A stretch of 64,000 nt of DNA from Trypanosoma brucei (taxonomy: Eukaryota), in NCBI GenBank assembly GCA_000002445.1, contig CP000070.1:1184001-1248000 (forward strand). The letters run 5' to 3'. The notes beneath the pieces were generated by a model, which saw only the letters and a list, made by a program, of their open reading frames with translations, did no database searches and was not told the DNA's origin. Below are positions 3,991 through 59,974 of this stretch, in pieces; the stretch's first letter is position 1; every line of letters begins with the position of its first letter. The position numbers and the translations under genes were made by a program.

Positions 3991-4002
3991 GGAGAGTGCC
4001 AA

Positions 4003-4273: not shown

Positions 4274-4292
4274 ACACACACACACACACACA
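4274..4292. repeat. (AC)n microsatellite
   Basis: acacacacacacacacaca seen directly. Similar (CA)n runs occur at about 14711-14730 and 28612-28627. Confidence 0.9.
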
Positions 4293-7983: not shown

Positions 7984-8648
7984 ATCGATGTTGATTAAAG
8001 TAAGGATATCTCTGTTGTTGCTGGTTCTCTTTTCTTTTTCCTCCTTCGTTCCTTCCTTCCTTTCTTCTTTGGTTTCTGCGATCACTTATAATAACGATAA
8101 CAGAAATAATAAAGGTTAGGATACTATGGAAGGTGTTCGCTAGTCCTTGTAACAGTGCTTATTCTTCTCGTTTTGTGATGTATCGAATCCTTCTAAGGAA
8201 GACAAGGACGGAAGGATGGAGGGAATGAATTCATTTCTTTTCCAGAAATATAGAACGTGATGTAAACGACACAGGCCATAAAAAAGATTGCAGAAATAAA
8301 GAAAAAAAAACAGCGCAGAAATTTTGGTGGGAATGACGGCAACAGACTCAAGCATATACGCACACAAACAGGGGTAGACACAAACATAAAAGTCGCTTGT
8401 GTACAACGATACTGGGAAGCCAACACTGGTATGAACAGCAACATTAATGATTTTTTTTAAAAAAGGAACTAAAAAGGAAACAATAATCTACTTTTTGGGA
8501 GGGTTAGGGAAGGATAGCAAAATATCACCACGTACTCACCCCCTCCTCATTTTTTTTTGGAATAAGCGGCACCTAAGGGACATCAGCGTAAAAGCAAACA
8601 AAAATAAACCAACAGGGCAAAACCAAAGCCACGAGCTGAAACAATCAC

Positions 8649-13800: not shown

Positions 13801-13804
<4 letters not shown>

Positions 13805-13832
<28 letters not shown>
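13805..13832. repeat. (AT)n microsatellite
   Basis: atatatatatatatatatatatata seen directly. Other (AT)n runs are at 21148-21167, 28626-28642, 29089-29107, 30300-30317 and 34991-35008, all intergenic. Confidence 0.9.
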
Positions 13833-26747: not shown

Positions 26748-28148
26748 TTATACTTTCTCAGCTCTACGCAAGTCATAAACTGGAGGAGCCACATCCTGCT
26801 CCACTACCTCATTGTACATGTGTGGACTCCAGCTAAGCAAGTGTGGATAAAAGATATAATTTTGTCCACTGCGCTCGCGCTGCACGCGTTTCGAAAGACA
26901 TCTTTCGATACTCTCTTCCGAAACTACAATTTGAGTACCATCGATTAACTTCAAGTATTGTAGCGTTCGCATGACATCCGCTTCCGACATGAACGTTGCT
27001 TGCACAAGATAGTCCAGTGTGACGCAGTGACTTTCCTCAATCGCGCGAGCAAGGGTTGAAACGATCGTGTCGCCCCAGTATCCCAGGTAAAGCTTCTCCC
27101 CCAGGTCGCTCAGCGGCTTCTCAGGTGAGCCTATTTTCCCCTCGCGACGAGACAGTTCATAGCTAAGTTCAATGAGAAACCGCCCTATCCCACGACTCTG
27201 GAACTGTGGCAGTACGAGTATGCAAGAGAGATTGTACATCTCCGGTGTCGTCTTCTCTTTGCTGAAGTAGCCAAGCACTTCCAAACCATGTGGTTGTATA
27301 CTGCAGAGCACGTAAAACAGAAAGGGCGTCATGTCATGATCAAGAGCTTTATGGTCAAGGAACAGTTTGGATAGAAGGGCCAAGTGCTCGCAAAATGTGG
27401 GCTCAGCTACTCCATCAATCTCTACCACGGTGAGATTCCGTATGGGATCGCGATATATTTCATTTCCCGGTGGAAAGCGGGAGCAAACTAGACGGACGTG
27501 GCGCAACACATCTTCATGTTCCGAAAAGGGCTGTAAGCAAAAGGGACATATATGAAGCACAAAAGATGTAAAAGCAACGGAAGAACGCAGAGCATTATCG
27601 CGACTATCTTGGCGCAGTTGTAGCTCCATGTCACCTGTGAAGTATTCTGCGTTCTGCTTGAAGCCTTGCTGCACCTGCGGTCGCGCAAGATGGTACGGCG
27701 AGAAGTACCACGTCTCCACTTCATATGGGCCCATGCAAATACGTTGAACATTCTTCGGTCGATAAAAAAACGAACTCTCCTTCCGCGTTCTGGTAGTTGT
27801 TACCTTATCACAATTTGGTGTCGCACCTCGCTTTGCTGCGGAACCTGCCGTAGCGCCGTTGGATCCACTCTCCTCCTGCTCTGCCACCAAACGGCTTTGC
27901 CCACGCGTGGTGATGCCGCAGCCTGTTGGCTTACTCACCTGCTGTTTGTCCGCCTGCCGGCCTTGTCTCCGCTCCCTCAATGCGCTACCGGGGAGCCAAC
28001 GGTCCATGCGACTGTCCTGTTCCACGTAGTGAACGTAGTACAGAAGCTGCCCCGTGTGCGCATCATGTGCAACCTCTTGTATAATAGCGGCATGAAATGT
28101 TTCGTGGAGTGTCGCATAAACCTTCTGCCGCACCTCAAACATTACCAT
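26748..28148 (-). CDS. HAT1: MYST-family histone acetyltransferase with N-terminal chromo-barrel and C2HC zinc finger
   Basis: MYST catalytic core: LSCILVLPQFQSRGIGRFLIELSYELSRREGKIGSPEKPLSDLG (acetyl-CoA binding R/QxxGxG/A plus the catalytic Glu region). C2HC finger: CPFCLQPF...HVRLVC. Chromo-barrel: LLYYVHYVEQDSRMDRWL. The track start at 28232 is GTG; the first ATG is at 28146-28148. The HAT1 symbol rests on remembered T. brucei synteny (HAT1 adjacent to IG-NH) and was not searched. Confidence 0.9.
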   Translation of the reverse strand: MVMFEVRQKVYATLHETFHAAIIQEVAHDAHTGQLLYYVHYVEQDSRMDRWLPGSALRERRQGRQADKQQVSKPTGCGITTRGQSRLVAEQEESGSNGATAGSAAKRGATPNCDKVTTTRTRKESSFFYRPKNVQRICMGPYEVETWYFSPYHLARPQVQQGFKQNAEYFTGDMELQLRQDSRDNALRSSVAFTSFVLHICPFCLQPFSEHEDVLRHVRLVCSRFPPGNEIYRDPIRNLTVVEIDGVAEPTFCEHLALLSKLFLDHKALDHDMTPFLFYVLCSIQPHGLEVLGYFSKEKTTPEMYNLSCILVLPQFQSRGIGRFLIELSYELSRREGKIGSPEKPLSDLGEKLYLGYWGDTIVSTLARAIEESHCVTLDYLVQATFMSEADVMRTLQYLKLIDGTQIVVSEESIERCLSKRVQRERSGQNYIFYPHLLSWSPHMYNEVVEQDVAPPVYDLRRAEKV

Positions 28149-29076
28149 GTCCAAAGGTGTGACACCTGGTTCTTTCTTCCTGTAGGTTCCCCTCTTCACT
28201 CTGTGGTCCGATAACTTTGGTTTCCTCGCCACCTATTTGTCACCCATAAAAAAACAACAGACGATGTTAGCGCGCACGACCACGTGGAGTTGTAAATTTT
28301 AACCAGATAGGGTGGAGAAGAAAGAACGTTTTTTTTTTTTAAGTCCTAACGTCGCAGGAACAAGGCGAGGTAACAGTGACGGTTGATAGGACTGCATCAC
28401 AACACCAGAGGTAGTACATCATCTATGTATGCACGATGCACCGCCCCAAGGTAGTGATGGGGTCCAAAATTTAATATTTCTCCTATTTGTTTATTGATTA
28501 TTTATACCAATGCCGACCTTTAATAGCCTGAGCTCCCCAACCTTCACACATCCAATCGGGTAACGTTGTGTTTAACTCATATTCTGTTTAATTCCCCTCC
28601 ACATACAGACATACACACACACACACATATATATATATATATTACACCATTTCCACCCACCTCACATCGCGCTTTTAATAGTTCATACGATTATTTTCCT
28701 TCAAATTTCTCTATAAAGAAATCCCTCTCCCATTTACCCACGCGATCTTTCGCGAGGAATAAAGGGAGATACAATATGTGTATTTCTGTACCCGAGTGTG
28801 CGCATATGTTTGAGTTCAACTTTTAACTTCTCTTTAATTTATTTGTATTCGACATACATATTGTTTTTGTGCACATCACTTCGCAGAAGCAAGGAGAATG
28901 TACTTTCCGAGGCATTGTTTTTCTATTTAGAAGTCATACACGTGGCAGAGAAGCCAAATAAAGTAAAAAAAAGAAGTAAACAAAGGACCCAATTGTAATA
29001 TTAACTCACGCCCACACTATTAATGATAATGAAATGACAAATAAGATAAGATAAAGAGCGTGAAAATAAGAAGGTT

Positions 29077-29109
<33 letters not shown>

Positions 29110-30650: not shown

Positions 30651-31724
30651 TTACGCGACATATTCTACGATATCCCGTAGCGCCTTGAGGAACATTTCAT
30701 TGTCCACTTTAGTGATAACATTGCAGTTGCGCCAGCGACCCTTTTTCGCCATGGACTGTTCCGTGCCATACCAATCGATGCATGTCGCCCCCCTTGTTTC
30801 CCTTCCATGCAATTCGACAGTTACGTATGTGAGGAAGCTGTCGAGTACACTTTCGGGGCGGATGGCAACCAGCACAGCTACAGCGTCCGGAACAACGCAC
30901 GTAACATCTTGCGTTGCCTCAGCGTCACCGGTGTCTGCTCTTGTGCCATCATCGTGAATACGAGTGAATGCCTCCAAACGCTGAAACAGTTTTTCAATAA
31001 ACTCCTGCCATTTGTTTTGATTTACCGCCACGCGGCCATTGGGAGTCAATTCTCTGTTCACCAACTTATCATAAAACCCCCACGTCATGGGGGAGTTAAC
31101 AGTTACCTCCCAATTAACCAACTGTACCGGACACTTCCACCCCTTGTGCTGCAGCACCACGACCCCCGCTTCCGGATCGCAGTGGCTGTTAAACTCAGCC
31201 GCCATGTTGGAGTTGCCCTTGCTTTCACTGGTGCCGTTCATGATGACAATGCCAGGTATCGTATCTGTCCCAAGTTTGGAAAACAAATCGGGGTTCAAAC
31301 GAAGGGCCAATGCCACATTTGTAAGGGGGCCCAACGCAACCAACTGGTACACCACATCATCTGACGGCTCTGCCTCCTCAAGTATTTTCAGTATCTCCAG
31401 TGCGGCATGTCTTTTAGGTTGAAGAGCCACACGCTTAGATGGTGGAAATCCCGCATCACCAAAGCCGTCCGAGCCGAAGCCGCCCCACTGCACAGTCTCC
31501 CGCTCCCCCACGAGGGGTCCCTCTGCCCCACGAAAAAACGGTATATCTGCGTCATACAAATCCAGAAGTTTGCCGATATTTTCCATACCTTGGTTAACCT
31601 CCACATTTCCCCACACAACAGTGATGGCAATGACTTCCACATCAGGCTGTGTCATAGCCAACATGATGGCTATGGCATCGTCACCGCCACAATCGGTGTC
31701 GATGATAAGTTTTCGATGAACCAT
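30651..31724 (-). CDS. inosine-uridine preferring type nucleoside hydrolase (IU-NH family; likely the inosine-guanosine NH of T. brucei)
   Basis: N-terminal fingerprint IIDTDCGGDDAIAI (the DXDXXXDD Ca2+/ribose-binding motif of nucleoside hydrolases). 357 codons with ATG at 31722-31724. Length and layout fit IU-NH/IG-NH enzymes. Confidence 0.92.
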   Translation of the reverse strand: MVHRKLIIDTDCGGDDAIAIMLAMTQPDVEVIAITVVWGNVEVNQGMENIGKLLDLYDADIPFFRGAEGPLVGERETVQWGGFGSDGFGDAGFPPSKRVALQPKRHAALEILKILEEAEPSDDVVYQLVALGPLTNVALALRLNPDLFSKLGTDTIPGIVIMNGTSESKGNSNMAAEFNSHCDPEAGVVVLQHKGWKCPVQLVNWEVTVNSPMTWGFYDKLVNRELTPNGRVAVNQNKWQEFIEKLFQRLEAFTRIHDDGTRADTGDAEATQDVTCVVPDAVAVLVAIRPESVLDSFLTYVTVELHGRETRGATCIDWYGTEQSMAKKGRWRNCNVITKVDNEMFLKALRDIVEYVA

Positions 31725-33201
31725 TATTTAATGTATCGTCCAAACAAAAATGTCAACTCTAACGATGAATATCAAGCAGTACAAAACAAAAAAGAGAAGA
31801 GAAGAGGAAAGAAATCATATGGAAGCTCCTTGTCTTTCCTCTTCTGTCCCTCTTGACCCGTCTACTTCCCAGTTTCTCCGCTTACGTTAGGCAGAAGTAT
31901 CGTTCACCGAAGGGTCTTAATCAAGCTGAAGTTCCTTTACGCTGATTAGCCAATCTTTACAAATACGGTAACATCCACCTGGAAAACAAAAATAATGTAT
32001 ACACACTCACATATGTACTGGCGCGCGGTACAATTATTTATGGCATAGCAAAACTTTTGTGCCACATGCGATGATCAATAGGTCGAACATTAAAATTTAA
32101 AAAATCGCTACATGTGCGACAAGACAACAAAGATGGCAAAGCTTTCCTTACAAACCAAATTCACGCGCGCGCAATCACCTCCGTCATCGGCACGACAGGC
32201 CCCTTCGACCCCCCCCCAAAAAAAAAAAAATGCGCCCTCAGCTCCAACACAATCACCTCATCACTCAGGTGACGCGGCGGATGACCCAACGACTTACCAA
32301 CACACATTTTCATCAGCTCTGACTATTTGATTTTTTTCCCCTTCACACACAACTCCTCAATTGTCTCGATATGTTCCCTTTTTCCCCTCCAGACCACCTC
32401 CATGCGTTATTAACCCAGCAGGCACTCAACGCCTCCACGTAACAAATGCTGAAGGCAGTGTTAAAACTGTAAGACATCTTCACAAATACCTGAAACAGTT
32501 GATGATGGCCTCCGAATGGCACACAACTTTGACGGTGGTGGTGGGATGGTACTTGGAGGCGAAGACACAAAATATATGGTAACACAAAAGCGCCACTACG
32601 TGCAGCTTCGGTGGGGAAGTGGTGGGTGAGTACTGCAACTCAAGCAACCAACGAAGGGAGCGCTCAAAGGGATACAAAAAGTTGTGCTCAAACTTTTTGC
32701 GGATGCTCAGACTCCTAGCGGAAAGAAACCCAAAAGTAACACGCAGACGTGCACGTGCCACCGAAGTGGATACCATAACCTGAGGCGCCCTCCACAGCCC
32801 CTCTAACGCTGCAGCACAGAACACATATTTACGTATCACCTCATTGGAATGCTTTCAATGCACATGACCCAATCAACAGACGCCACTGATGAAACTCACT
32901 TTTATTACCAACGAATTAACGGTCACCTATTGCGTGGAGCACAAGAAATTCTCTTCAAAAAGTAAAACCGGTAAATAAGGGAGGAAATGCACTTCATAAA
33001 AGGGAAATAGCACGTTACGCATCGCTACTCTGCAAAACAAATCTAATCAAAACATACATATATGAAATTCTTGAGGTCTATGAGGCCAATGGCAAGAGGA
33101 GAGCAAAAAAAGTATGGGGTGTATAGTGCCTCTATAGAACCGACTTCTGCACCAGCACTAAGCACGTTATCGGTAACGATGGTGGACATATTCGACGTAT
33201 T

Positions 33202-34926
33202 CTAGTGCTGACGCCCTCTCATTCCACGCAAACGGTAGTTCTCGTACAAACACTCCTGCGGATACTTCCCGCCGTACCGCCAAAGAAGATAACCGCCGTC
33301 CGCCGACGATGGGCGCCTTTGGCCTTTGCGTGAAGCAGAAGCACCTCTCTTCTCATGCCTTGAAGTCCTTCTCTGCTCTTGAAGTACCTCCTGTATTTGT
33401 TCATACGTTGACTTTGGGAAATCTCTTGCCGCTATAGATGTTGACCTCTTTGTTGATTTTGGGGGATTCGGGGACCGGCGCTCCTCCACGTTAGATGGCG
33501 TACCAGCACGCGCAGCACGTAAAAACCTCTCCCTAGAGCGACAATCCGATCGATTAATTCTTTCCTTCGCATCCTCGACTGCACGCCGGTGCCTTGAGGG
33601 GTGCTGCAGTCCCTCAGCAAAGTTGTCTGTGCCGTAGTGCGGGGACTGGATAAACGTAAAAGTCGTTCCGTCCTCATTGGCAAGTAGTCCCACATCGTGA
33701 CGCCCAAGAGACTGCACGGAAGTCGCAACATTCGTCAACATTGTAGCCACGTCGCATCGGCTTAAGAAAAACAAACGACCCGCAAGCGTCTTCACCACCT
33801 CCTCAGGTTCTCGATTGTGGTCTCCTGAAGCACTGGCGAGTTCTCGAAGCGCGGCCCGCTCCAACTCCCGCTTCTGCTCCTCTGACAACTCAGGAGGCCG
33901 GGCCGCGCCCCCAGCAGGATGAAAACCGGACGGCAGGTACTGCGAAGGAAGCAAGCAAACCTTTGGTAATGGTACGCCCTGATGAAACAGGGGAGATGTT
34001 GCCTGAACAGTTCCCGCCGCCATTGGTGGTTGCGGGACTGCTGCCATTGGTGGTTGCGGGACTGCTGCCATTGGTGGTTGCGGGACTGCTGCCATTGGTG
34101 GTTGCGGGACTGCTGCCATTGGTGGTTGCGGGACTGCTGCCATTGGAGGTTGCGGGACTGCTGCCTTTGGTGGTTGTGGGACTGTTGCCATTGGAGGTTG
34201 CGGGACTGCTGCCATTGGTGGTTGTGGGACTGCTGCCATTGGTGGTTGCGGGACTGCTGCCATTGGTGGTTGCGGGACTGCTGCCATTGGAGGTTGCGGG
34301 ACTGCCGCCATTGGAGGTTGCGGGACTGCTGCCATTGGTGGTTGCGGGACTGTTGCCATTGGAGGTTGCGGGACTGCTGCCATTGGTGGTTGCGGGACTG
34401 TTGCCATTGGTGGTTGCGGGACTGCCGCCATTGGAGGTTGCGGGACTGCTGCCATTGGTGGTTGCGGGACTGCTGCCATTGGTGGTTGCGGGACTGTTGC
34501 CATTGGTGGTTGCGGGACTGCTGCCATTGGTGGTTGTGGGACTGCCGCCATTGGAGGTTGCGGGACTGCTGCCATTGGTGGTTGCGGGACTGCTGCCATT
34601 GGAGGTTGCGGGACTGCTGCCATTGGAGGTTGCGGGACTGCTGCCATTGGAGGTTGCGGGACTGCTGCCTTTGGTGGTTGTGGGACTGCTGCCATTGGTG
34701 GTTGTGGGACTGCTGCCATTGGAGGTTGCGGGACTGCTGCCTTTGGTGGTTGTGGAACTGCTGCCATTGGTGGTTGTGGGACTGCCGCCATTGGAGGTTG
34801 CGGGACTGCTGCCATTGGTGGTTGCGGGACTGTTGCCATTGGAGGTTGTGGAACTGCTGCCTTTGGTGGTTGTGGAACTGCTGCCATTGGTGGTTGTGGG
34901 ACTGCTGCCAACGGAGGGTCCGGCAT
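33202..34926 (-). CDS. proline-rich tandem-repeat protein (about 37 copies of the octapeptide MAAVPQPP) with a unique C-terminal domain
   Basis: The track start at 34950 is GTG; the first ATG is at 34924-34926 ([13 protein letters not shown]...). The N-terminal ~300 aa are near-perfect MAAVPQPP repeats with K (KAAVPQPP) and T (MATVPQPP) variants. The C-terminal ~270 aa are non-repetitive and charged. Confidence 0.8.
34020..34907. repeat. tandem array of 37 x 24 bp (ccattggtggttgcgggactgctg and point variants) encoding the MAAVPQPP repeats
   Basis: Counted directly: 888 bp = 37 units. Variant units are ccattggaggttgcgg..., cctttggtggttgtgg... and ...ggactgccg. The plus-strand ORFs 33963..35024 and 33982..34944 are antisense artefacts of this array. 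Confidence 0.95.
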
Positions 34927-35175
34927 TGTCACAAAAAATCTTAAGGACACTCTATGACCCCTATGACGTACACAAGTATCAAGGTTGGAGTATATATATA
35001 TATATATTTACGGGAAGAAAGTAAATAAGAAGCCTCAGTAAATTCAACACGACAAAAAAGTGGGTACAAGGTCGATCAGATGGAAACAATACCGAGTACA
35101 AGCTGCGCAAGTAATTAAGCATATCGATATTGTGTGTTGTTAGCGCAAACGAATCCTGCTACGCGTGCTATAGGG

Positions 35176-36816
35176 TTATCCTCCTTCATCGTACTGGATA
35201 CTAGTCAGTTTCCCCGAGTCATACGCCTTTTTAGTGATGGGATCGCGAAGGATCTTATACGCAAGAATTATCTTTTGCATTCTACTCCTACTTATTTCAT
35301 CATTTTCACCTGTGTTAGACACATCCGGGTGGTGCCGCCTGGCCGCTTCGCGGAAAGCCACAGCTACGTCCTTTGAAGTTGCAGAAAACTCCCGACCACT
35401 CAAACCAAGTAACTTGTAGTATCCTAGTGGGTCAACATTCTCCAAATCAGTACGCCGCCTCTCCTTTGGGTTGACGTGTCGTCCACGGCGAGCTTCGTCA
35501 CGAGCAGCTTCTTCCTTCACCCTTTGCTCAAAACTCTCTTTTTTACGAGCTTGGCGCCGCAGTTCCTCCCGATACTCGTATTCCTCACGCTCCTCATCTT
35601 CAGGCGACCAACGGTAGCCTTGCTGATCAGAGGTGAAGTGCAACATCCCCGCCGTTTTCAACTCCGCCATCTGGTTTGTCTGCTCCCGAAGGAAACACAT
35701 CACCATCAAAAACTGTTGGACACGTAGTGATAGTGCAGCTGCGAAAATAGAGGCTGTAGTTGCAACACCAGGTTCGACCACTGTGGCGGAGGCTATTAGC
35801 GTAACAGCGCTAAAGAGCAGTGCTACGCCCGATTTTCCACGTTTTGTGAGGTGTAAGACGGGACCAGCAACTTTACCAGTAGCACCACACACAAAAGTGG
35901 GACACTGTGTAGATGAGTTTCCCGTTGTAACCGTAAACCGCAACATTGGGAGAAAAACAGGACGAATGGAAATACTTTCCTTGTAAATACCGGTAAGGGT
36001 TACATTGCTTCTTACGAATGAGCCGTGGAACTTGACCAGTTCCTGATCGATACGCCGAAGAACGGTATCTCTTGTCAGACGGGAGTCCAAAATGGTGAGC
36101 GCTGTGGCCGTCGACATCGCAAAGGGTATGATTTTGGGATGCACCTCCATTTCCTCTAGCTCTTTTAGCAACTCGAAACGTGAGATAAGCATGGAGGGAA
36201 CATGTGTTCCAACAACACAACGCTCCACCAGCGACAGTGGGTGAACGTACGACGCAGATACTTGATTGGATGGGTGGTGCTCACCAAACGGGTAGCTGAA
36301 CTGGTAATTCGGTCCCTCAACCCAAACAAGGCAATGCTGCTGCGTTAAGTACGCAGGATCCCTCTGTAGAATTTCAGCACGGAAACTCCCACCGGCTGCC
36401 GTCGCTGCGAGCCAGAAAGGCATCATGTACCGTTCGACACTGTGAACACGCACCGTAGCGCCATGGTGACGACATACAGCATCCAGAGCCTCTGCCTCGC
36501 CAATGTGAAACGGGATGCCACACGCCTTTTTAACGATGCGGGTGTTTTTTGCTTCTAATTGGTCCAGTGACCGAGCAAAAGTAGAAACTTTGTTTTCACC
36601 GGATCCAGGGGGGGCCTGCTCTTCAAAGAGCCCCATCATCGTGCGCCGTTGGTTCACCTGCACATAACAAAGGGAGTATGAAACACACGACCGTAGTTGA
36701 AACATCCTAGTTTCAAAATGCCGCTCCCCTAACACAGTCCATGCACGCCCTATTCTATGATTGATGGGTTGAAAAGAAACGGCAGAATGAATTACAATAC
36801 ATACATCTGCGTGCAT
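35176..36816 (-). CDS. J-domain (DnaJ/Hsp40) protein with the J domain at the C-terminus
   Basis: C-terminal J domain: DPLGYYKLLGLSGREFSATSKDVAVAFREAARRHHPDVSNTGENDEISRSRMQKIILAYKILRDPITKKAYDSG, with the invariant HPD. The track start at 36900 is GTG. In-frame ATGs lie at 36816, 36705 and 36639. The sequence upstream of MMGLFEEQ (36639) is Cys-rich and hydrophobic, so the true start may be 36639. Confidence 0.75.
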   Translation of the reverse strand: MHADVCIVIHSAVSFQPINHRIGRAWTVLGERHFETRMFQLRSCVSYSLCYVQVNQRRTMMGLFEEQAPPGSGENKVSTFARSLDQLEAKNTRIVKKACGIPFHIGEAEALDAVCRHHGATVRVHSVERYMMPFWLAATAAGGSFRAEILQRDPAYLTQQHCLVWVEGPNYQFSYPFGEHHPSNQVSASYVHPLSLVERCVVGTHVPSMLISRFELLKELEEMEVHPKIIPFAMSTATALTILDSRLTRDTVLRRIDQELVKFHGSFVRSNVTLTGIYKESISIRPVFLPMLRFTVTTGNSSTQCPTFVCGATGKVAGPVLHLTKRGKSGVALLFSAVTLIASATVVEPGVATTASIFAAALSLRVQQFLMVMCFLREQTNQMAELKTAGMLHFTSDQQGYRWSPEDEEREEYEYREELRRQARKKESFEQRVKEEAARDEARRGRHVNPKERRRTDLENVDPLGYYKLLGLSGREFSATSKDVAVAFREAARRHHPDVSNTGENDEISRSRMQKIILAYKILRDPITKKAYDSGKLTSIQYDEGG

Positions 36817-37081
36817 GAACCCAACGAGATTGAGCAACTGGAAAGAGGCAACATGGGAGAGCAACAAAACTGACACCACTTTACGGTATCGTGCAGACAC
36901 CTTCCTAACGCACTTGAAAGTCGTCGCGACCCACTAAGGGGAGGGTGCACGGTGGTTCGTATTCACTAGTCTTCCGTGCAGTTAACGCGGTAACAAAAGG
37001 TTAGATCACTTTAGCTAATACAAGTGTGTAAAACATTAATAAACAGTGTAAATATACAATGACATTTGGGGGAAGTGTCCG

Positions 37082-39913
37082 TTACGGAACACAACCAGCG
37101 TCCCCTTTCTCGACTGTGGGTGGTGGCAGTTCCCTTAGTATCAATGCGCTGCGCGAGTGCAATGTGCGCAACCTTTCTATCATATCAGTCAGAAAACAAG
37201 CGAGCTTCCGTGGGAAACTCACTTTGGGGTCCGGGCACCAGTACTGGCAGGCAATACCAAAAGATTCCAAGAACAGTGAGAAGCATAACTCCCCCTCTGG
37301 AAGCAGCAGAACGCGTTCGTGAAGCGCATTAAAGGTTTCTGTAATCTCCTCGACATCTGTGAACTTCACCTTCCGACAGTACCGATGCGGTTCGGTGCTC
37401 CCCCTCCGGGAGTTATTCTCTTTCTCCTTGTTGTCTGCGACAAAACCACAATCTGAGAACATACGAAGATAGGCATCAAAGCTAATTCGACCCACGAAGC
37501 GACCCGATGGTTGTTTTAACCCTTTCGATGACTTCCTTTGGTTTTCACTCTGCTGTTTTACGTAGAAGAAAAAAACACGCGCCAGGTCTTCCTGTAAATG
37601 ACGTATAACGCGCTGCGATTCCGGTCGATAGAAGTCCACTGTTGTTGGAGTCACCCCACAGAGTGTTGGGACACTCAAACCAGTGAGAAACCGCCCCGCC
37701 GCATCCAACAACGAGTCTCGAAAGCGCACAGCACCCATATGTAAAAGTATTTCCGTAAACTGCGCCGGCTTGACTCTGCGTATATTCATTTCTTCCTCCG
37801 CCGCCTCTAGCAAAGCAGCCTGCTTCTCCACACTTTTAGCTTGAAGCATTGCCATAAGCTTAGGAGAGATAACTGTGTCGAAAATTCGGGCTATGGTTTG
37901 TCTCGAAAGTGGTTCCACCATTAATCGGGAATCCTCTACGAACCGCCAAAACTGAACTTCGTCCATCTCGTGTGCATTCTCTCCGGCATAGTGATAAAAA
38001 ATTGAAGTAATCGTGTTTACATGTTTCCACAGCACCCTCTTAAGAGACTGCACAACGGACCTCCACACCTGGGGGGTACACGAACCGAACTTCTCGCGGA
38101 GGTCGTTCATTTTCCTCGCATTAAGACTCACAAAGTGGCGGGAGGCGTCGGCTGTCACTACATATCTCGGATGGCCTCTGCCTCGTTCCCATGTCAAACG
38201 TGCGGCTTCACGGGAGATGCACATGCCACTCTTTTGCAAGTCCATCTCACACCATACACCCAAGCGAAAGTTTTCCACCTGCTTGCTGAGCTCCTTATTC
38301 CATATCGACAGTTGCTTCTTTACATCCTCTTCAGTGGTCAGAAGGCTGACATCTTCCGAATCGGTAGCGATGCTGCTGTCAACTTGAAGGGGATCCTGTT
38401 CAACAACCAACCGGAAAGACTCGCTGACAGCGTCTGCCCTCTTCTTTTCCACGTAGTAAGCGAATATTTCAGCTACTGCTACTATGATCCTGTCCTCCCG
38501 TTTCATGTTGAAGTCTTCAACAGTTAGCGAAACGGCTAGGGGTATGTTTGTAGTGAAGTCGCACACCAGTCGAAGTCGGTCTGCCACAGACGAGTCCACG
38601 GATGTCGCAAACTCTTTTTTTTCAGGAAAAACGTAACGAATAATGCCGTGAAACACCTCCCCATCGGCGAAGTCGTCTGCAAAATTTCGCACTCGCCGCA
38701 ACACCCCGACCTCTCCACTGCGAAGGATGTGGTTACACCACCGGAGAAGGAATGAATGTCCCTGCAACGCCTCGTTCTCACCATGTTCAGGTTCTCTTTC
38801 CTGGTAGTCACCATCTTCTTTGTGGAGCCAGCCTGCAACTACTTCCTTAGCATCAAACTGAGTACCGACAATCTTCTTCAGCAGGATGTTTTGATGCTGA
38901 GCTAGGGTTAATATCTCAAGTAAACGAGCCCTAAGATTCGCCTCATGATTCCTCTCTTGGATCTTTAGTTGCTCTTTCAGCCTTTCCACCTCTAGTTGCA
39001 GCTCGTCTCGCTCGCACATTACCGCCTTTAGCTCTGAGTCCTTCTCCTCATTGCTTAGTTGTAACTTATCGGCCCTGAAGCATTCCATATGGAATTGATT
39101 CTTTGCGCTCTCCAATTGAAATGCCGCATCGTGCAACCTCTCGGTGAGAAACTGCACGCGAGACATTGCTGTGGCACTCTTCCAACGAAGGAACCCTAGT
39201 GCAACACACAAAAAGCGGCTATCGGCACCGTGCCGCGACACGACGTTGCGCCTAAGCTTATTAACGACGCGCTCCTTTTTCACATTATCCCGCCATGCAA
39301 TAAAAGCCCTCCTTTTTCTTTCACTTTGTACGTAAACAACAAGCATGTGTGCAATTCGCTTCCACTCGCTGCCTGTGAACGAGACCCGTTTGAGTTCCCC
39401 CGAAATGTTTTTCAGCTTTAATAGGCTGGCATCGTATTCATGCATATACGTAGAGTGGGAAAAAAAAGGGTTGTCGCGATGCAGGGCACGGTCGCACAAC
39501 AGCGCCTGTATCGCAGCTGGCGCGTAGTCTAACCGTTTTGCATCGTAATTGCAAAAAATAGCTGGTAGTAGGGCTTCGGTGATGTGCACCATGAACTGCT
39601 TAAAGGGTGAGTGGCAGCTCAAAAGTTTCATGGACCACACTGCAGCCATTGCTCTCGACTGGTTCGTAACGCCTTCACGGCCCGCAAGCTCTCGCAGCAT
39701 CGTCTCAACAAAGAAGCTTACAGAAGAGAATTCTCGGTAGCGTTCGGCATACTCCAAGAGTAACTTCGCATAGCGATGCCTTTCGATCTTATTGCGTGCG
39801 TCTAATGCGGCATCTTCCTTTTGGGAGAAAGCAGCATACGTGGCGCTCGGTCCCGAAGGAAAAACTATTGGAGGAAGTGATGAGGAGCAGGGATGCTTTG
39901 CTCGCGACACCAT
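37082..39913 (-). CDS. calponin-homology (CH) domain plus coiled-coil protein, hypothetical
   Basis: 943 codons with ATG at 39911-39913. LLRWCNHILRSGEVGVLRRVRNFADDFADGEVFHGIIRYVFP resembles the CH-domain core (LLxWCN...V.NF...F.DG.....L). Long coiled-coil stretches flank it (LKAVMCERDELQLEVERLKEQLKIQERNHEANLRARLLEIL). Confidence 0.7.
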   Translation of the reverse strand: MVSRAKHPCSSSLPPIVFPSGPSATYAAFSQKEDAALDARNKIERHRYAKLLLEYAERYREFSSVSFFVETMLRELAGREGVTNQSRAMAAVWSMKLLSCHSPFKQFMVHITEALLPAIFCNYDAKRLDYAPAAIQALLCDRALHRDNPFFSHSTYMHEYDASLLKLKNISGELKRVSFTGSEWKRIAHMLVVYVQSERKRRAFIAWRDNVKKERVVNKLRRNVVSRHGADSRFLCVALGFLRWKSATAMSRVQFLTERLHDAAFQLESAKNQFHMECFRADKLQLSNEEKDSELKAVMCERDELQLEVERLKEQLKIQERNHEANLRARLLEILTLAQHQNILLKKIVGTQFDAKEVVAGWLHKEDGDYQEREPEHGENEALQGHSFLLRWCNHILRSGEVGVLRRVRNFADDFADGEVFHGIIRYVFPEKKEFATSVDSSVADRLRLVCDFTTNIPLAVSLTVEDFNMKREDRIIVAVAEIFAYYVEKKRADAVSESFRLVVEQDPLQVDSSIATDSEDVSLLTTEEDVKKQLSIWNKELSKQVENFRLGVWCEMDLQKSGMCISREAARLTWERGRGHPRYVVTADASRHFVSLNARKMNDLREKFGSCTPQVWRSVVQSLKRVLWKHVNTITSIFYHYAGENAHEMDEVQFWRFVEDSRLMVEPLSRQTIARIFDTVISPKLMAMLQAKSVEKQAALLEAAEEEMNIRRVKPAQFTEILLHMGAVRFRDSLLDAAGRFLTGLSVPTLCGVTPTTVDFYRPESQRVIRHLQEDLARVFFFYVKQQSENQRKSSKGLKQPSGRFVGRISFDAYLRMFSDCGFVADNKEKENNSRRGSTEPHRYCRKVKFTDVEEITETFNALHERVLLLPEGELCFSLFLESFGIACQYWCPDPKVSFPRKLACFLTDMIERLRTLHSRSALILRELPPPTVEKGDAGCVP

Positions 39914-47909: not shown

Positions 47910-50900
47910 TTATATCCACCGCTCGCTCTTTACAGTATCAATATTGCGAATGATCTTTGTTACAGCAGGTTTTCCCCCCTCAAGGGTACACGTTTTTAAG
48001 GTCTCCCATAGATGACGCCTATCATCATCTTCTTCGCTGCTTGTGTAGTCAACCAAATCGTGCCCAGGAACCACCTGTGAGGTTTCCTCGTTTATGAGGC
48101 ACTTGAACAGTGCCCTTTTTCTTGCTTGGGCTTTTAAAACTGTGGCGTCTTCGAATCCCGATGCTAATTTATAGGCAATAACAGCCTTTGACTGATTTTG
48201 TCTGTAGCACCGCGCAATTGCCTGTGACTCAACCTGAGGATTCCACCACGTGTCCCACAGAATAACGTGATTCGCCGCAGTTAAATCAAGACCGTACGCG
48301 CCAATCTGAGTGGACACAACCAAGCAGAGTACGTTCTTATCATCCCTGAACATCTCAACAACCCTTCGTCGACGTTGCTGGCAATCTTTTCCACGAATTG
48401 TAACTACACTAATCTTATAAGCCGTCAAGGTTCTTGCAATGAAGTCTTGCGACCCAATGTATTGTGAAAATATCACAGCCTTTTCCATCTTCTCGAAAAT
48501 GCTGTGTAAAATCGAAATGAGGGCTGTTAGCTTACCACTGAGCGCAACAAAGTCGGCCAGTTTCCCGTTTTCAAGCAAACTTGAACAATCCTTCGCTAAA
48601 GCGTCATCATCACGGCTAAGCCTGTACGTTCCCAACTCTTCGAACTCCCCTGGTTCTTCTTCGATATCAACTTGACCTGTTCTCCATATACCGGTCAAAA
48701 AACCCAAGAAACACAGTGGATGTGTTGAAAGGTGGTATGGCCGATGTTCGGACGCCTTCAGACACAATAGGTTATCTGTTGCATCGACTTTAATGCGCTC
48801 CTCGAACATTTTCTGCTGCACAGCGGAAAAGTTGCATATAATAATGTAGTCGTGCAGCGGTGGAAGATCAACCTTCATAACGGTAAAGACATAGGGGCTC
48901 ATCCACTCGTGGATATATCGTTGTGCGAAGAGAGCATCACAAAAAGCACTATCATCACCGTTAACATAGCGGTTGATAGAGTTTGAAAACTCGTTAAAAT
49001 CGCGTTGCGGCAATGTGGAATGAACCTTGTCATCCACCCACCCAACAAGACGGTAGAGTTCCTCAGCGTTATTCTGCACCGGCGTCCCAGTGAGTACTAC
49101 CCTTGCCGAGCAATACAAACTATCCAGTACCTCCCTCAGTTTACTTTCCTTCGACGATATGCAATGGCCTTCATCAACGACTATGAGAGCGGGGCGGAAC
49201 CCCTTTACCCTCGAAAGAAATGATTTGATGTAGCCAGGATTGATGACAAAGACGTAACTCTTCTTAGGGTTAGTAGTTGTGCCTTGTTGTTCATAGTTAC
49301 TGAGATCATCCTCGAAGGAGCTGGAGTCCACGTTGTTTAGTACAATAAACCCCGGGAATACGAGACCATAGTCCTTCCACTTTTTCGCCTCCTGCATCCA
49401 GTGTTGAAGCAGTGTCTTCGGCGCAACGATCAGAATGTCACACGGCCCATTGTTGTAAATATAAGAATAGCAGATCGTCAGTGAAACCAGTGTCTTCCCA
49501 AGTCCCATTGTTAACGCCAGCACACAACCGTCTCCTTCCTTGATACGACGTGAAACAAATCTAAGGGCCGCATGCTGAGTTAAGCTCAGGGTCTTTGCTA
49601 TTTTGAAAGGAATACACAAAGGTGGAAGGTGGCCGGTGACTCCGTTCAAATTGACCACGCTGTCTGCGCTGTCAGCATGCAGACGATCGCTCATGATCTG
49701 GTTCCGGAGTCTCATGCTCCGCTCCGTTTCACATGTGTGGGACATCAACCCACACCGCAGATAGCATACAATGCTGATTCGTCTCCAACTTCCTTCACGA
49801 TTGTGTACTTCCGTGTTTCCGTGTTCCAGAGAACTGTCGAAAAATAAGACATCACCAACCTGAAGACAGAAGGCCTTGCGCGCACTTTTTAAGGCTAGGT
49901 AGCACCCCTCGTAATTACCGTCAAGTACGCAGAGTGCAGTAAGACCACCGCGAAAGTCACCTTTGTCTCGATGAACGGCGGTTCGAAAGTTCTTGTTCAC
50001 ACTTACAGTACTGAAAACGGTGTTGAATAGCATGTACTCAGGCGGTATGACCCTGCGCTGAAGTTCGTAATGGTCTGGGGCGTTTTCCTTGTATAGTTGA
50101 TCTAACAACTGCAGTAACTCACCACACGGTCCGATAATCTTACCCCAGTTCCTGCGTGTGAACTCAGTCATGCGGCACTTACGCTTCGTTGGATTGTTGA
50201 GATAGTCGTAATAGCCAAGGATACCCGTGTCCGGATTTCTCACACCACCATTTGTCAATCTCCGCATATTTTGTTTGGTAGCCACTCCCTCCACATCAGC
50301 TGCGGCACGTCGACAGATATCTTTATCAATGCCACCACGTATAAAGATGGCCTGCACACGCTTTCCGGTTGGGTCCAGCAAAACACTATCCTCGGTCACC
50401 AGCTCAAAATCCTTTTCAGAGAGGTACTCTGAAACCTTGCCTGTAGGGATGTCAACCACCTCGGTACCGGTAACGTCAAAGCCTTCATAAATATCATCCA
50501 CTGCATCCAGAGCAACAGGCGCAATGTTTACAGCTGCTTCAGCAGCATTGCGAGGGAATGGATCCATCGAACCGTCTAGATGGACCACAGTCCTCTTGAA
50601 TTGAACGTCCACGCGCTGTCCGAGAGGAAGCCTCTGTGTGAGAGCACCAGCTCGGAACTGACGGCGAAGTTCTTCACATACATTTTGCACAGGTCTGATG
50701 TGCAGAAGCGGAACAATATCGTACGCTTTTTGATATTCCTCATCAGAAGCGGTAACCAGTTCCGCACAGAGGTGGACAATTCGACATATGTAATCGCGAG
50801 GGTGGTAAAGAAGGCGGCACGGTAAGGATACACCTGGAGCCGTCGGGAATGTCTCCTCCAGGTTGCTGAACAGGGCCAAACGCTCTGCATCAGTCTTTAA

Positions 50901-51143
50901 CCCGTAGTAGTCTTTGCATAGCCTGGTAAGAGAAGATTCTGACATCGGTATTGGTGGTAGAATCGTGATGCCACCTTTCGGGATACTCACTAACTTCATT
51001 CCATGATTTTTAGCCTCGTCAACGATAACATCAAGTTCACCCAAGAAGGAACCGGGTATAACGATCGCTGGCTCACTCGTTACTAAGACAGTTTGTAGCA
51101 CCTGCTGCAGCACTTGAGACGCCCCATCCATAAACATAGGCAT
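47910..51143 (-). CDS. JBP2: J-binding protein 2: JBP-type Fe(II)/2-oxoglutarate thymidine hydroxylase domain fused to SWI2/SNF2 ATPase
   Basis: The N-terminal half carries the TET/JBP dioxygenase signature TAVHRDKGDFRGG (HxD) ... LEHGNTEV (distal His) ... SWRRISIVCY (2OG-binding Arg). The C-terminal half carries SNF2 motifs: LALTMGLGKTLVSL (I), LIVVDEGHCISS (II, DEGH), VLTGTPVQNNAEELYRL (III) and the helicase-C block CLVVSTQIGAYGLDLTAANHVILWDTWWNPQVESQAIARCYRQNQSK (V-VI). The track start at 51290 is GTG and is followed by a hydrophobic junk peptide. The first ATG is at 51141-51143 (MPMFMDGAS), giving 1077 aa. That is the length I recall for T. brucei JBP2. Confidence 0.93.
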   Translation of the reverse strand: MPMFMDGASQVLQQVLQTVLVTSEPAIVIPGSFLGELDVIVDEAKNHGMKLVSIPKGGITILPPIPMSESSLTRLCKDYYGLKTDAERLALFSNLEETFPTAPGVSLPCRLLYHPRDYICRIVHLCAELVTASDEEYQKAYDIVPLLHIRPVQNVCEELRRQFRAGALTQRLPLGQRVDVQFKRTVVHLDGSMDPFPRNAAEAAVNIAPVALDAVDDIYEGFDVTGTEVVDIPTGKVSEYLSEKDFELVTEDSVLLDPTGKRVQAIFIRGGIDKDICRRAAADVEGVATKQNMRRLTNGGVRNPDTGILGYYDYLNNPTKRKCRMTEFTRRNWGKIIGPCGELLQLLDQLYKENAPDHYELQRRVIPPEYMLFNTVFSTVSVNKNFRTAVHRDKGDFRGGLTALCVLDGNYEGCYLALKSARKAFCLQVGDVLFFDSSLEHGNTEVHNREGSWRRISIVCYLRCGLMSHTCETERSMRLRNQIMSDRLHADSADSVVNLNGVTGHLPPLCIPFKIAKTLSLTQHAALRFVSRRIKEGDGCVLALTMGLGKTLVSLTICYSYIYNNGPCDILIVAPKTLLQHWMQEAKKWKDYGLVFPGFIVLNNVDSSSFEDDLSNYEQQGTTTNPKKSYVFVINPGYIKSFLSRVKGFRPALIVVDEGHCISSKESKLREVLDSLYCSARVVLTGTPVQNNAEELYRLVGWVDDKVHSTLPQRDFNEFSNSINRYVNGDDSAFCDALFAQRYIHEWMSPYVFTVMKVDLPPLHDYIIICNFSAVQQKMFEERIKVDATDNLLCLKASEHRPYHLSTHPLCFLGFLTGIWRTGQVDIEEEPGEFEELGTYRLSRDDDALAKDCSSLLENGKLADFVALSGKLTALISILHSIFEKMEKAVIFSQYIGSQDFIARTLTAYKISVVTIRGKDCQQRRRRVVEMFRDDKNVLCLVVSTQIGAYGLDLTAANHVILWDTWWNPQVESQAIARCYRQNQSKAVIAYKLASGFEDATVLKAQARKRALFKCLINEETSQVVPGHDLVDYTSSEEDDDRRHLWETLKTCTLEGGKPAVTKIIRNIDTVKSERWI

Positions 51144-52304
51144 TGCCGTAACTGGTAGCGTAAAGAGGGGGTAAATAATGTAGTGAACAAAGAGGAGGAA
51201 GGAAAGAGTGAACGTCAGTGGTCTCGAGAATGACCGCAGGAATCTGCGTACTGAAAAGGTGCGAAAATGGAGTAACCGGGTAGCAAACACAACCCAAATG
51301 CAACATTCACAACTGCATATGCAAAGTAAACTACCTCCTTCACTACCTTCCGCAACACTTGTTGTGGTATTCAGTAGCAGAAAATTTGTCCCAAAACAAC
51401 ACTCCTACAACCCAAAACATGGAGGTAACAAGCCAGTTTAAGTCTACGCTAGTTTGCGGAATTTATCAGCATTGAGCCCTACACACGTGGATGGAAGACG
51501 CTTTCCTCTGTATTGCTTCACATATTCTCATCTCTGTTCGACAAAGAGTGAGCGCCCTGTACTGGCTTCATGTAAATAAGGGAAACATCATTTGTCTTCA
51601 TTCGCGTAGGTATTTTATCCAACAAAATCGGTTTCGTGTGTGTCCTATGGAAAAGGGTATAACTTTTCGCACAGATATTTTGAAATTATGCTTACCAAGG
51701 ATTCTAATGTGTATCTACATGAAAACAAGGAAAGAAAATCAAGCAGAACCAGGGGTACTTATTGTCCCATGAGCAACGCGGCTGCGGCCCAGGCACATCA
51801 TAAGAAATACACGATATGGTACACTCCCTCGTTTCTTTTGGGTAAGGGGGAGGTTTAATTTTTCGACATGTACACTTGTTGTGCAAATTACGCCACCCTT
51901 TAGCCCGCAACACCTGACATTATTTCCCCTTTGTCATAGAAGGATCCTCGCCACCTCTTACTGCGTGTGCTCATGGCGGCGTAGTAGGTGAGCCACCTTT
52001 GTGCCGTGTACACTGATACCCATTTCAAAGTACCCGTACCTACTGCTCCGACACCTCCTGTGCTCATCAGCGGCGCCGTACCAACGCCAGAAAGTAACTG
52101 GGAAGAGAAACGCTTACGAACAGTGGAGATGAAACGGGACGTAACAAACTCTAGCTCGATATAATTAGTTAAATCTTTGTCGCCAACTCGTATATTCGCA
52201 CACGTTGCCTTGGAAAAATAAATTAAAAAGTATCAACCCCCAAAGTCCGAGGGCGTGGATACGTCACGAATGAAATCCATTCCAACACACCAAACAAGGA
52301 ATGT

Positions 52305-54700: not shown

Positions 54701-57700
54701 AAATGAGCTAAACCGACAACTTCAAGCATCTCCCCTGTGAACGCAACCCAGTTGCCGCAGTCAGACCCCAACCTCCAGTGGACAATGACAAGAAATACTT
54801 CTGCAAAAGAAGCTGTACAGACGGCAAAGGGGTACATTGGGGGTGTAGACGGAGAGAGAGACTTTTTACCCGCATGATCCTACTTGACAACGTGTCACAC
54901 CGTCAAGGGAACGCTTAAAAAATGCAGCGTATGCTATTTCAGTCGTGATTTACAATATCTATTTCCCCCTCCTTTCCAGCTCCTGCAGCAACGGACAATG
55001 AGTAAATATTACAAGGGCAGCCATCTTTGTCGAGATCGCACAGAACCCTTTAACGTCGGTGGTGCATAACACCCCACCCCTTCCTTCCCCACGAACTAGC
55101 GGATGCACACGTACCTCATTATACTGAACAGTTCAAGATCCACCACCTAAGAAGCGCTAAAACAAAAAGAAATGGGTGTGGGACCGCACCAATCGAAACG
55201 ATCTTTTCAAACTGAGAAAGGTGATTGAAAGGCCCCAATACATTACGAGTGCGGTTATCTGCACCAAGCTGCGTTGACGGGAACCGCTGGCGGCAAACGA
55301 CGAGGAAAGAAAGTGGCCAAAAGCACTAATGCATCGGGCATGAATAGGGAGGGGGTGATCCCACGAACCGATCACCAAAAAAGGGAACGACGTCACTTCG
55401 ACGTCGTTCTCTTTCGCCACACACGCCCACGCGCATCCCCGGATAAAAAATAAGATTGAACAAAAATGAAAGGGAAGGAGGGAAAAGGAGAAGGGCAACG
55501 ACGAGCCGCAGCGCATAGCAAAAGTGAGCCTCCATAAGACAGATGTGTGAAAAGGGGAGACCACCCAGTGGCCAATACTACCGTCCCCAAAACGAGGGCT
55601 GTACTGCCAGCACCACGCCACACTAGTGGGAGCTGACGGCACTCGGACACACCGCCATGCGCAGGTCCCGGGGCTAAGCCGGTTTTTAGGCCGCTTTCTG
55701 CAAAACCTGAACGAGTAGTGGGGGCTTAAGTCCACCCCTACCAGCAAAGGGCGGCGCTTTTGGTCACTTCGAGGCACCGGGAACCACCATTGGACATGTT
55801 ATTTCCGGCCCCCCGTCCATTAGCCTTCTGGGGCCTCAAAAATAGACAACAGCCGCCACCCCGGACGCGCGTTTTGGAATCTAAGCGCAAAGGGGCTGCC
55901 GCAGAAACCGGGTTGACATCGGTATTGGGGTCACAACGGTGGTTTAAAAGAGTGATCCCTCAGCGGGCCCTTGCCTAAATAAAAAGAAAACCGAATCGCG
56001 CCGGCGCTCGTCGAGCAAAGCTTCGCCTTTGCGGAGAGGCACCCGGCTGAACGAGTTGTTGTTGGGTTATATTCCGAGAATTTTGCAGGGGGTGGCTTCT
56101 TCGGGTCATAACATATGTACCCCACTTCCTCCTAGGATGGGTGTGTAATTTGACTGGAGAGTCGGGGAACATGAGCAGGGTGTTTTGTGTTCCACCGGTC
56201 AGGGGGCCGGGTTCTTTTTTTCATAAACGTCTATAGGTACGGGGTGTCTATTTTTGGGAGGAGTGCGTAGCCTGTTCCCTTATAGGCGTCCACGCAACTT
56301 CAGGCGAAAAATGCGGAAGAGAAAAAAAGAGGGTTGAACGACAGCGGCTTTTTACCTTTCGCTGAATATCGTTTCGTGAACTGTGTATAGTAGAGTTTCT
56401 GAATTTTTGGTCTCGCTACACTGTGTCATTTTAGCGAAATGAACTACGCAACGGTGTGGGCTTTGTTTTACATGCAGACGACAGCCGTGCCACCCGGCAT
56501 GTACCTGACGCACTTGACGGACCGCTGTCTCCTGGCCATTCCCTCATGTTACGGTGGCAACGTGTGGGGGAAAAGGTGGCGCTAGCCGTCGCGGCTCGCA
56601 CGGAGTTGAGATGTTGTGCAACTCGAAAACCAGCCACTTCCGTTTGTACAGCGTGGTTCTTGTAGGGGGACAAATGGTTGTTTATTTATACATTTAAGTG
56701 GCACATCAAAAGGATATGCGCGGCAGGGTTGTTCAGCCTCTTTGACAAGTACCCACAGCGGGAAACGCTTTTCGTTCCCCCTTTAAATGCGGTGCCTCCC
56801 AAAAACTGAGACGAAGGTCACTCGTGTGTGTGCATCCCTTCTCAATTTTCAAATGGTTAGCGGAAGTACGTCGCAGTCGAAAATGAGAACTGCTTCTGCC
56901 AACAAGAAACCCAACCGGGACACAAAATCGTACCACGAGTGAACGCTCAGTGGCCCGGGTAGTACTCAGCTTCTACCTTTTTATTTATGCGGGAAGGTTT
57001 AACGGCTGTGCTCCGTCTTTGCACCGCTGTTATTTCGTTGGGGGGAAAGTTTAAGGGGGGAAACTACAAAGTCTTTCAGAGAATAGGATGCTTTGGAACA
57101 CTTTCCTACCTTTGAACTATCTGTAATGGTAAGGATGTTGGGAAGAGGACTTGGGAGGGAATTTCGACCGTTTTGTTTGGAGAGCGCAGTGACGCTAAGA
57201 CAAAGGAGCCGTTGCAAAGGACGCGCCAAATAGCATTTAAATCCTGGGTGTAAAACGCGGGGTCATGTGCTTGCTCTGCTAAGTTTAATTTAATTTGTGC
57301 ACACACGCTCATGTGCATGACAATCCAATGGGTTTGAACCTTTCGGTTGATGTGAGAAGACAGAACAGAAAGTGCCGGGTGGAACCACCAATTTTTATAA
57401 CCAACGGCGCGCCACTGGGTCTACGGATGTGCCTGCAAGTTAGCAATCTGTAGAGTGTCCGTGGTGAAGTAGCAGCTGTCGTTTCAAAACTTTAAAATTC
57501 TCTGCTGAATATGTTGTACGATAGCGATGTGGAAACGTGTCATGTTATCTTGTGCCGTTTATCACACTGACAATGCAATAAGGTTCGCCAACAATTCACT
57601 GCGAAACTAAACTAGCACAACGTCATCAAAGGTGAAGCGCTAGGGGTACGTACGTGTTTTTCGTGGGAAACCATGTTTGCGTGAATTTCAGCAACACAAT

Positions 57701-59930: not shown

Positions 59931-59974
59931 TATTGTGTTCCACGTCTTGCGCAATTGCTGTTTGTAGGTGCAAG

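Follow-up and report, generated by a model that had tools for sequence, protein, structure and literature searches.

A Trypanosoma brucei gene joining an array of near-identical MAAVPQPP units to an unnamed, apparently kinetoplastid-specific protein module

A stretch of 64,000 bp from chromosome 7 of Trypanosoma brucei (contig CP000070.1, positions 1,184,001 to 1,248,000 of the forward strand; the whole stretch is called the window here, and coordinates are counted from its first base) contains, on the minus strand, an open reading frame (ORF) that runs from 34926 to 33202 and comprises 574 codons plus a stop codon. The encoded protein is basic, has a mass of about 60 kDa, and consists of a long arm of near-identical proline-rich octapeptides followed by a unique C-terminal tail. 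Judged by its place between Tb927.7.4570 and Tb927.7.4590, the gene is presumably Tb927.7.4580. The gene is annotated but uncharacterised; its product belongs to a familiar type, the proline-rich tandem-repeat proteins, and includes an unnamed lineage-specific domain. Comparison with orthologues indicates that the arm goes back to an ancestral [VI]-P-x-P-P array that was re-homogenised separately in the trypanosomatid lineages. The tail, as far as homologues can be traced, represents an unnamed module of 230 amino acids (aa) that is restricted to kinetoplastids.

Tandem Repeats Finder places the array at 34019-34910, with a period of 24, 37.2 copies, 92% matches, 0% indels and a score of 1511, and the other five rows that it returns for the window score at most 65. 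The array is far beyond chance. The program and the translation agree on some 37 near-identical 24-bp units joined to a unique C-terminus, as had been stated in the original prediction, which was made from the letters of the DNA and its ORFs. In the unit-by-unit parse, 27 units read MAAVPQPP, five MATVPQPP, four KAAVPQPP and one LAAVPQPP, and the VPQPP core is unchanged in 37 of 37. Three classes of point variants had been described, and this is right for the peptide, where M is replaced by K four times and by L once, and A by T five times. At the DNA level the description falls short, as the units vary at seven positions and form 12 distinct haplotypes with a mean pairwise identity of 92.8%. 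Synonymous third positions account for four of the seven variable sites, and the three non-synonymous sites touch unit residues 1 and 3 only. When every difference from the unit consensus is counted, 30 are synonymous and 10 are non-synonymous. The order of the haplotypes along the array is non-periodic (ABCDEFBGHHGEEIEFIDIEJDEDEKIIHELGIIIII). The first ATG had been placed exactly at the start of the repeats; this has to be corrected, since ATG 34926 precedes the first in-register unit by 15 nt.

The repeat unit is free of stop codons in all six frames, and two plus-strand ORFs that cover the array (33963-35024, 353 aa, and 33982-34944, 320 aa) are spurious by-products of this openness. Strand and frame are fixed by the tail, because it has homologues in this frame, and they are also supported by the share of synonymous sites and by the invariance of the VPQPP core. 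The gene is shown to be a genuine, expressed-type protein-coding gene and, on the evidence of the substitution pattern, is under purifying selection. The arm contains 38% proline, with alanine making up most of the remainder, and is uncharged (four K or R and one D or E in 301 aa). No fold is predicted for it, and an extended conformation of the polyproline type II (PPII) is plausible.

A homology search with the non-repeat C-terminus, recommended as a check in the original prediction, brings up orthologues throughout Trypanosoma. An exhaustive search of 1.84 billion representative sequences with the family profile extends this set to T. theileri, Leishmania tarentolae, Angomonas, Strigomonas and Phytomonas. 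The order of genes for a calponin-homology (CH) domain protein, a DnaJ protein, the protein discussed here, a nucleoside hydrolase and a MYST acetyltransferase is common to T. grayi, T. theileri and Leishmania. No DnaJ gene is called in T. vivax, where a DnaJ-like ORF of 523 aa occupies its place.

The N-terminal cap ahead of the first unit is kept in the orthologues as the pattern M-x-x-P-P(-P-P), with MSIPPPP in T. cruzi, MSVPPPP in T. grayi, MSFPPAPP in T. theileri and MSIPIPP in Phytomonas. The units that follow are TAAVPAPP, TAAVPVPP and TAAVPPPP in T. cruzi, TAA[IV]PAPP and TAGVPPPPP in T. theileri, AAVPPPPPP in T. grayi, about 30 copies of ASVPPPPP(A) in T. vivax, and 14 copies of TSVVPPPP in Phytomonas; L. 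tarentolae has a degenerate version of the array. The [VI]PxPP motif is found 37 times in T. brucei, about 29 times in T. vivax, 21 times in T. theileri, 16 times in Phytomonas, 7-12 times in T. cruzi and four times in L. tarentolae. The arms of Angomonas and Strigomonas are long, proline-rich and of low complexity; they are non-repetitive and lack [VI]PxPP. Units of different species vary in length (8-9 aa), in their flanking residues and in copy number, whereas those within one species are nearly identical. This combination bears the mark of concerted evolution on a motif whose protein sequence is conserved. The units of T. b. gambiense differ from those of the window mainly by synonymous changes (GTT CCA versus GTC CCG) and encode the identical peptide. 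The length of the array is unstable; units are gained and lost by unequal recombination or replication slippage, with the result that copy numbers differ between strains and assemblies break.

Assembly trouble of the kind foreseen in the original prediction is indeed widespread, and takes the form of a contig break, N-gaps, frameshifted models and differing unit counts. The contig of T. equiperdum OVI ends one unit into the array, and the truncated gene model starts at the methionine of the degenerate unit. An N-gap is located within the array in T. grayi, and another immediately upstream of 12.6 units in T. cruzi CL. The T. b. gambiense DAL972 assembly (FN554970.1) has 28.2 units and a model of 502 aa that is flagged 'LOW QUALITY PROTEIN'. 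Right after the DAL972 array (locus stretch 3001-4507) there is a deletion of 2 nt (ACCATCCAAAGG versus ACCATTACCAAAGG in the window), for which the public model compensates by hopping to the WQQFHNHQ frame within the array; the deletion is an error of sequencing, or else it is real and pseudogenises the gambiense gene. About 20 units, with three deletions of 1 nt, are present in T. b. equiperdum IVM-t1. In T. vivax, the gene model has been shortened to 209 aa and lies downstream of the array. On the T. vivax contig SOPI01000326.1 (locus stretch 4061-5630), ATG 4061 opens the array and a frameshift near 4497 splits the units; the intact protein would have about 520 aa. The openness of all six frames also lets gene callers read through frameshifted arrays in these other assemblies.

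In view of the counts in other assemblies of the T. brucei group, with 28.2 units in DAL972, about 20 in IVM-t1 and a break within the array in OVI, the figure of 37 units could itself be a product of collapse or expansion during assembly, the true allele having another number. We consider this rather unlikely. The array of the window is in frame throughout, has no indels, and contains its 12 haplotypes in non-periodic order; a collapsed consensus would look otherwise, and these properties therefore argue for a faithfully sequenced allele. Moreover, strains differ in the haplotype composition of their units as well, which makes true polymorphism at least as likely as an artefact.

The tail had been described as unique and charged, and this description stands: it comprises 273 aa if the degenerate unit is counted, contains 44 K or R and 31 D or E, and is net basic, with an isoelectric point of 9.9. 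Pfam has no match in the tail or in any of its homologues, distant ones included. Searches of the PDB with two family profiles gave no match better than E = 0.14, and no significant fold match was obtained for the tail. AlphaFold2 performed poorly with 7 sequences (predicted local distance difference test, pLDDT, 54). With a 30-sequence alignment, the usable part of its model is limited to residues 30-90 of the 230-aa query, where the pLDDT is 84-94. This part corresponds to a small helix-helix-hairpin domain, which is both the best conserved and the best predicted part of the module, with near-invariant G-R-x-D and Q-S motifs. Residues G64, R65, D67 and Q83 are invariant in an alignment of 18 sequences; with 30 sequences Q83 is still invariant, and the other three are nearly so. 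The family signature at the C-terminus, Y-[LI]-L-x-R-Y-G-G ... Y-x-x-Y-R-x-x-G, is modelled with moderate confidence, and disordered stretches lie between the predicted elements.

Distant homologues of 190-270 aa, drawn from metagenomes, Logan assemblies and one 'Colponema' transcriptome, have both conserved blocks and an extra G-R-G-A...H-N-x-P-x-G tail, and are devoid of the proline arm. One of them is encoded on a densely packed contig with intron-less genes that all lie on one strand. Another, on a metagenome contig (L009, gene pair 8365-11014), is located directly downstream of a DnaJ gene whose product is 47% identical to Tb927.7.4590; the module itself is only about 20% identical there in the 30-sequence alignment, and the next upstream gene is unrelated. 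On account of the packed one-strand contig and of the DnaJ synteny, we read these distant homologues as orthologues from free-living kinetoplastids. If this is correct, then the module would be older than the proline arm. The 'Colponema vietnamica' sequence might be taken for a spread of the family beyond kinetoplastids, but this is doubtful, since it may stem from kinetoplastid prey in the culture. A gene of the type discussed here thus follows a Tb927.7.4590-type DnaJ gene directly in the T. brucei window, T. grayi, T. theileri, Leishmania and the metagenome contig, and the two genes might be functionally linked.

Other affiliations of the module were considered. The family profile weakly picks up KLC-type TPR proteins via the string DV-T-L-N-A--L--LGR-D. 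In the window, the string at 33625-33760 resembles the helix-A consensus of KLC-type TPR_10/TPR_12 repeats, and matches to bacterial TPR-kinases reach E values down to 3.5e-9, summed over 7 repeats. The likeness may have been left over from a TPR origin, or it may reflect convergence. Membership in TPR_10/TPR_12 was rejected, as Pfam finds no TPR in the protein and the model has a beta-hairpin in the place of helix B. Most orthologues end in ...HGLKK, which recalls WH2; this reading was rejected, as there is no Pfam WH2 match, the spacing is wrong, and the T. brucei protein lacks LKK. Finally, the MKT1-binding HNPY motif was dismissed as a counterpart of the H-N-x-P-x-G of the distant homologues, which differs in pattern and is absent from trypanosomatids.

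In databases the protein is named 'Cornifin (SPRR) family, putative', as if it were a precursor of an envelope cross-linked by transglutaminase. The name has a formal basis, a Pfam PF02389 match of 41.6 bits on residues 106-204 that exceeds the gathering cut-off of 34.8. However, this match lies entirely within the repeats, drops to 18.9 bits, below the cut-off, in the 20-unit T. b. equiperdum protein, and does not appear in the orthologues of T. cruzi, T. theileri, T. vivax and Phytomonas, which have homologous arrays. Cornifins and SPRR proteins have Gln/Lys-rich head and tail domains and repeats that contain cysteine. The units of the T. brucei protein have no cysteine, such head and tail domains are absent (the N-terminus is MPDPP, and the 273-aa tail is unrelated), and what is conserved in the protein belongs to a kinetoplastid module that has no relation to cornifins. 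The assignment can be regarded as refuted in practice, and we give it hardly any credence; the label reflects the eight-residue periodicity and the Pro/Gln composition, not homology.

It is less clear what the arm does. Tentatively, we favour a role as a multivalent docking arm for proteins that recognise proline motifs. The arm would be disordered and PPII-like, and its many identical short motifs would attract a proline-recognition protein in several copies. An older conserved function, targeting or partner binding, would reside in the C-terminal module, an assignment suggested by the occurrence of this module alone in the free-living relatives. Profilin is the leading candidate for the reader of the motifs, because the units of T. 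vivax, T. grayi and Phytomonas ([AS]VPPPPP) look like the tracks of formin FH1 regions, which are of the [IVM]PPPPP type; the respective stretches are SVPPPPP, AVPPPPPP and VVPPPP. The T. brucei unit would suit an SH3 or WW domain as reader just as well. Leishmania profilin is known to bind polyproline through a conserved site, and this binding matters in vivo (PMC10907219).

Several points weigh against docking. No binding partner, localisation or phenotype is on record for the protein, and Pfam detects no FH2, WH2 or other actin-related domain in it or in its homologues. No more than two prolines follow each other in the T. brucei unit, which makes it a poor classical ligand for profilin; tracks of at least five prolines after a small or hydrophobic residue do not occur in its units (VPQPP). 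The Angomonas and Strigomonas arms suggest that the precise motif may be dispensable. Finally, the likeness of units across species could be due to nothing more than concerted evolution that started from one ancestral unit.

The arm could instead be a passive spacer or entropic bristle, a stiff PPII segment of at most about 90 nm when fully extended, which holds the module away or excludes volume while its motifs go unread. The proline and alanine content and the lack of a predicted fold agree with such a role, and the Angomonas and Strigomonas arms, with neither the motif nor tandem repeats, suggest that composition rather than motif may be conserved. However, the length of the arm is not conserved, with 20-37 units in the T. 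brucei group, 16 in Phytomonas and four degenerate motifs in Leishmania. The V-P-x-P-P core, on the other hand, is kept despite the turnover of the DNA, which is the opposite of what would be expected for a spacer defined by its length. Free-living relatives, moreover, manage without an arm. We therefore prefer docking to a spacer, its main rival, which seems somewhat less likely, on the grounds that the motif is conserved and the length is not; the motif-less arms of Angomonas and Strigomonas weaken this argument. Cytoskeletal or flagellar repeat proteins and immunodominant repeat antigens, to which the protein had been likened in the original prediction, seem quite improbable counterparts. 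Trypanosomatid tandem-repeat proteins are often strong B-cell antigens, and the array is certainly long and highly regular. However, the family profiles match no chain of the PDB, although the library includes the axonemal doublet models of T. brucei and L. tarentolae (9e5c, 9y6s), and the octapeptide has no counterpart in the literature searched. A signal peptide or anchor is lacking on inspection of the translation, which reveals no hydrophobic or membrane segment either. Homologous arms are found in monoxenous insect parasites and plant parasites (Angomonas, Strigomonas, Phytomonas), which are not under antibody pressure. Antigenicity would in any case be a consequence rather than a function.

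As an extension of docking that we regard as a long shot, the family might be a kinetoplastid-specific actin-regulatory or cargo adaptor, with an FH1-like arm of as many as some 37 profilin-binding tracks grafted in the trypanosomatid ancestor onto an older module, the genomic partner of a mitochondrial-type DnaJ. Should this be true, the proteins would form a new class of multivalent recruiters of profilin (or profilin-actin) that works without FH2 or WH2, and they could help to explain the reported incompatibility between trypanosomatid profilin and formin (PMC10907219).

The minus strand carries all of the neighbouring genes (Table 1), in keeping with the polycistronic units of trypanosomes. 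Tb927.7.4590 is a DnaJ protein (PMC3738533), and its TrypTag tagging primers match the window exactly at 35096-35175 and 35179-35258; TrypTag lists the protein as mitochondrial. JBP2 corresponds to Tb927.7.4650 (PMC9566855). Searches of the literature for Tb927.7.4580, for guessed older, strain-specific and Leishmania ids and for the octapeptides yielded no mention, nor does Tb927.7.4580 occur in the examined parts of the supplements of TrypTag and of a paper on structure-based annotation. A preprint on Leishmania profilin speaks neither of proline-rich nor of hypothetical proteins, and has none of the guessed chromosome-18 gene ids. Only 250 bp separate the stop codon of the DnaJ gene from the ATG of the array gene, so that the 3' untranslated region of the former must be very short. 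Within this interval there come, in the direction of the gene, a pyrimidine-rich tract (35012-35032), a (TA)n run, and AG dinucleotides at 34962/61, 34953/52, 34951/50 and 34941/40. ATG 34926 is the first ATG past these dinucleotides, and an in-frame stop is located upstream. The layout would fit a trans-splice acceptor with a short 5' untranslated region. The (TA)n run between the tract and the AG acceptors (34991-35008) is one of three such microsatellites in the window, the others being at 13801-13830 and 29079-29107.

Table 1. Features of the array gene and its neighbourhood, in window coordinates
Feature	Position	Strand	Basis
Complete coding sequence of the array gene	33202..34926	-	Translation, ORF list, Pfam of neighbours, TrypTag primer matches
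Probable trans-splicing signal	34940..35032	-	Inspection and script; putative splice-acceptor role, by analogy with trypanosomes in general
Start codon and N-terminal cap MPDPP	34912..34926	-	Translation, orthologue comparison
Array of 37 in-register 24-bp units, 888 bp	34024..34911	-	Tandem Repeats Finder, unit-by-unit parse
Degenerate 38th unit MAAGTVQA, start of unique region	34000..34023	-	Unit parse
Pro/Ser/Gly-rich linker, poorly conserved	33895..33999	-	No conserved columns in orthologue alignment
Small helix-helix-beta-hairpin domain, 61 residues	33625..33807	-	AlphaFold2, conservation
Long predicted helix, residues 98-131 of 230-aa query, conserved AK-RI-R-D-RS-RF	33502..33603	-	Alignment, AlphaFold2
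Second predicted helix, residues 163-182 of 230-aa query, conserved YEQIQE	33349..33408	-	Alignment, AlphaFold2
C-terminal aromatic/basic motif, family signature	33223..33294	-	Near-invariant columns, kept in distant homologues
MYST acetyltransferase	26748-28232	-	Pfam
Inosine-uridine nucleoside hydrolase, Tb927.7.4570	30651-31724	-	Pfam
DnaJ protein, Tb927.7.4590	35176-36900	-	Pfam and TrypTag primers
Calponin-homology (CH) domain protein	37082-39913	-	Pfam
JBP2	47910-51290	-	Pfam

Between the array gene and the nucleoside hydrolase gene, T. grayi and T. theileri have an extra gene of 361-378 aa with no Pfam match (4999-6084 and 6674-7810 of the respective locus stretches). By tblastn, nothing in the T. 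brucei window corresponds to it, and the interval 31725-33201 there is free of ORFs. Scans of the 64-kb window for tRNA genes and Rfam families were empty. Farther away, some 7.4 kb (55800-63200) lack ORFs of at least 150 aa, and the GC skew is positive at 56-60 kb, unlike in the remaining window. Three short minus-strand ORFs at 59812-61377 have no Pfam match, and the ORF at 63231-63983 has a sub-threshold match to the GARP family (23.8 bits versus 27.4).

The practical consequences concern annotation. 'Cornifin (SPRR) family', the name in public use, is an artefact of low complexity and needs correction. In at least five public gene models of the orthologue group the array has caused truncation or frame-shifts, which makes comparative and proteomic analyses of the gene currently unreliable. 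Beyond this, the analysis defines an unnamed protein module that appears to be confined to kinetoplastids, and provides a clean natural case of a short proline motif that stays constant in the protein while the DNA array turns over. The variable 24-bp array could act as a marker for strain typing. If a reader of the motif were found, the protein would add a lineage-specific node to the networks of proline recognition and actin in trypanosomatids, which are poorly understood.

Among known systems, cornifin and SPRR proteins share with the T. brucei protein the Pro/Gln-rich octapeptide periodicity, which accounts for the formal PF02389 match; the latter protein differs in lacking cysteines and transglutaminase domains, and in a score that depends on copy number. 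The SAPA and B13-type antigens of T. cruzi and the MARP and GM6 repeats of T. brucei are similar in having long near-identical arrays with strain-variable copy number that are hard to assemble. They are unrelated in sequence, however, and the motif described here is family-wide in Trypanosomatidae, including parasites of non-vertebrates, and attached to a kinetoplastid module. The (Glu-Pro)n and (Lys-Pro)n segments of TonB and the EP repeats of procyclin are likewise repetitive and proline-rich, and are expected to form PPII-like rods. In contrast to these charged dipeptides of periplasmic or surface proteins, the arm is uncharged and, on inspection, intracellular, and it is its motif that is conserved and not its length. 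With formin FH1 domains and other multivalent polyproline arms that are ligands of profilin, finally, the protein has in common short proline tracks after a hydrophobic residue, in a disordered arm beside a folded effector region. It differs from formins in the absence of FH2 and WH2 and in the only two consecutive prolines of T. brucei VPQPP and T. cruzi VPAPP; its units are far more regular, and profilin binding is here a candidate property that is read from the sequence.

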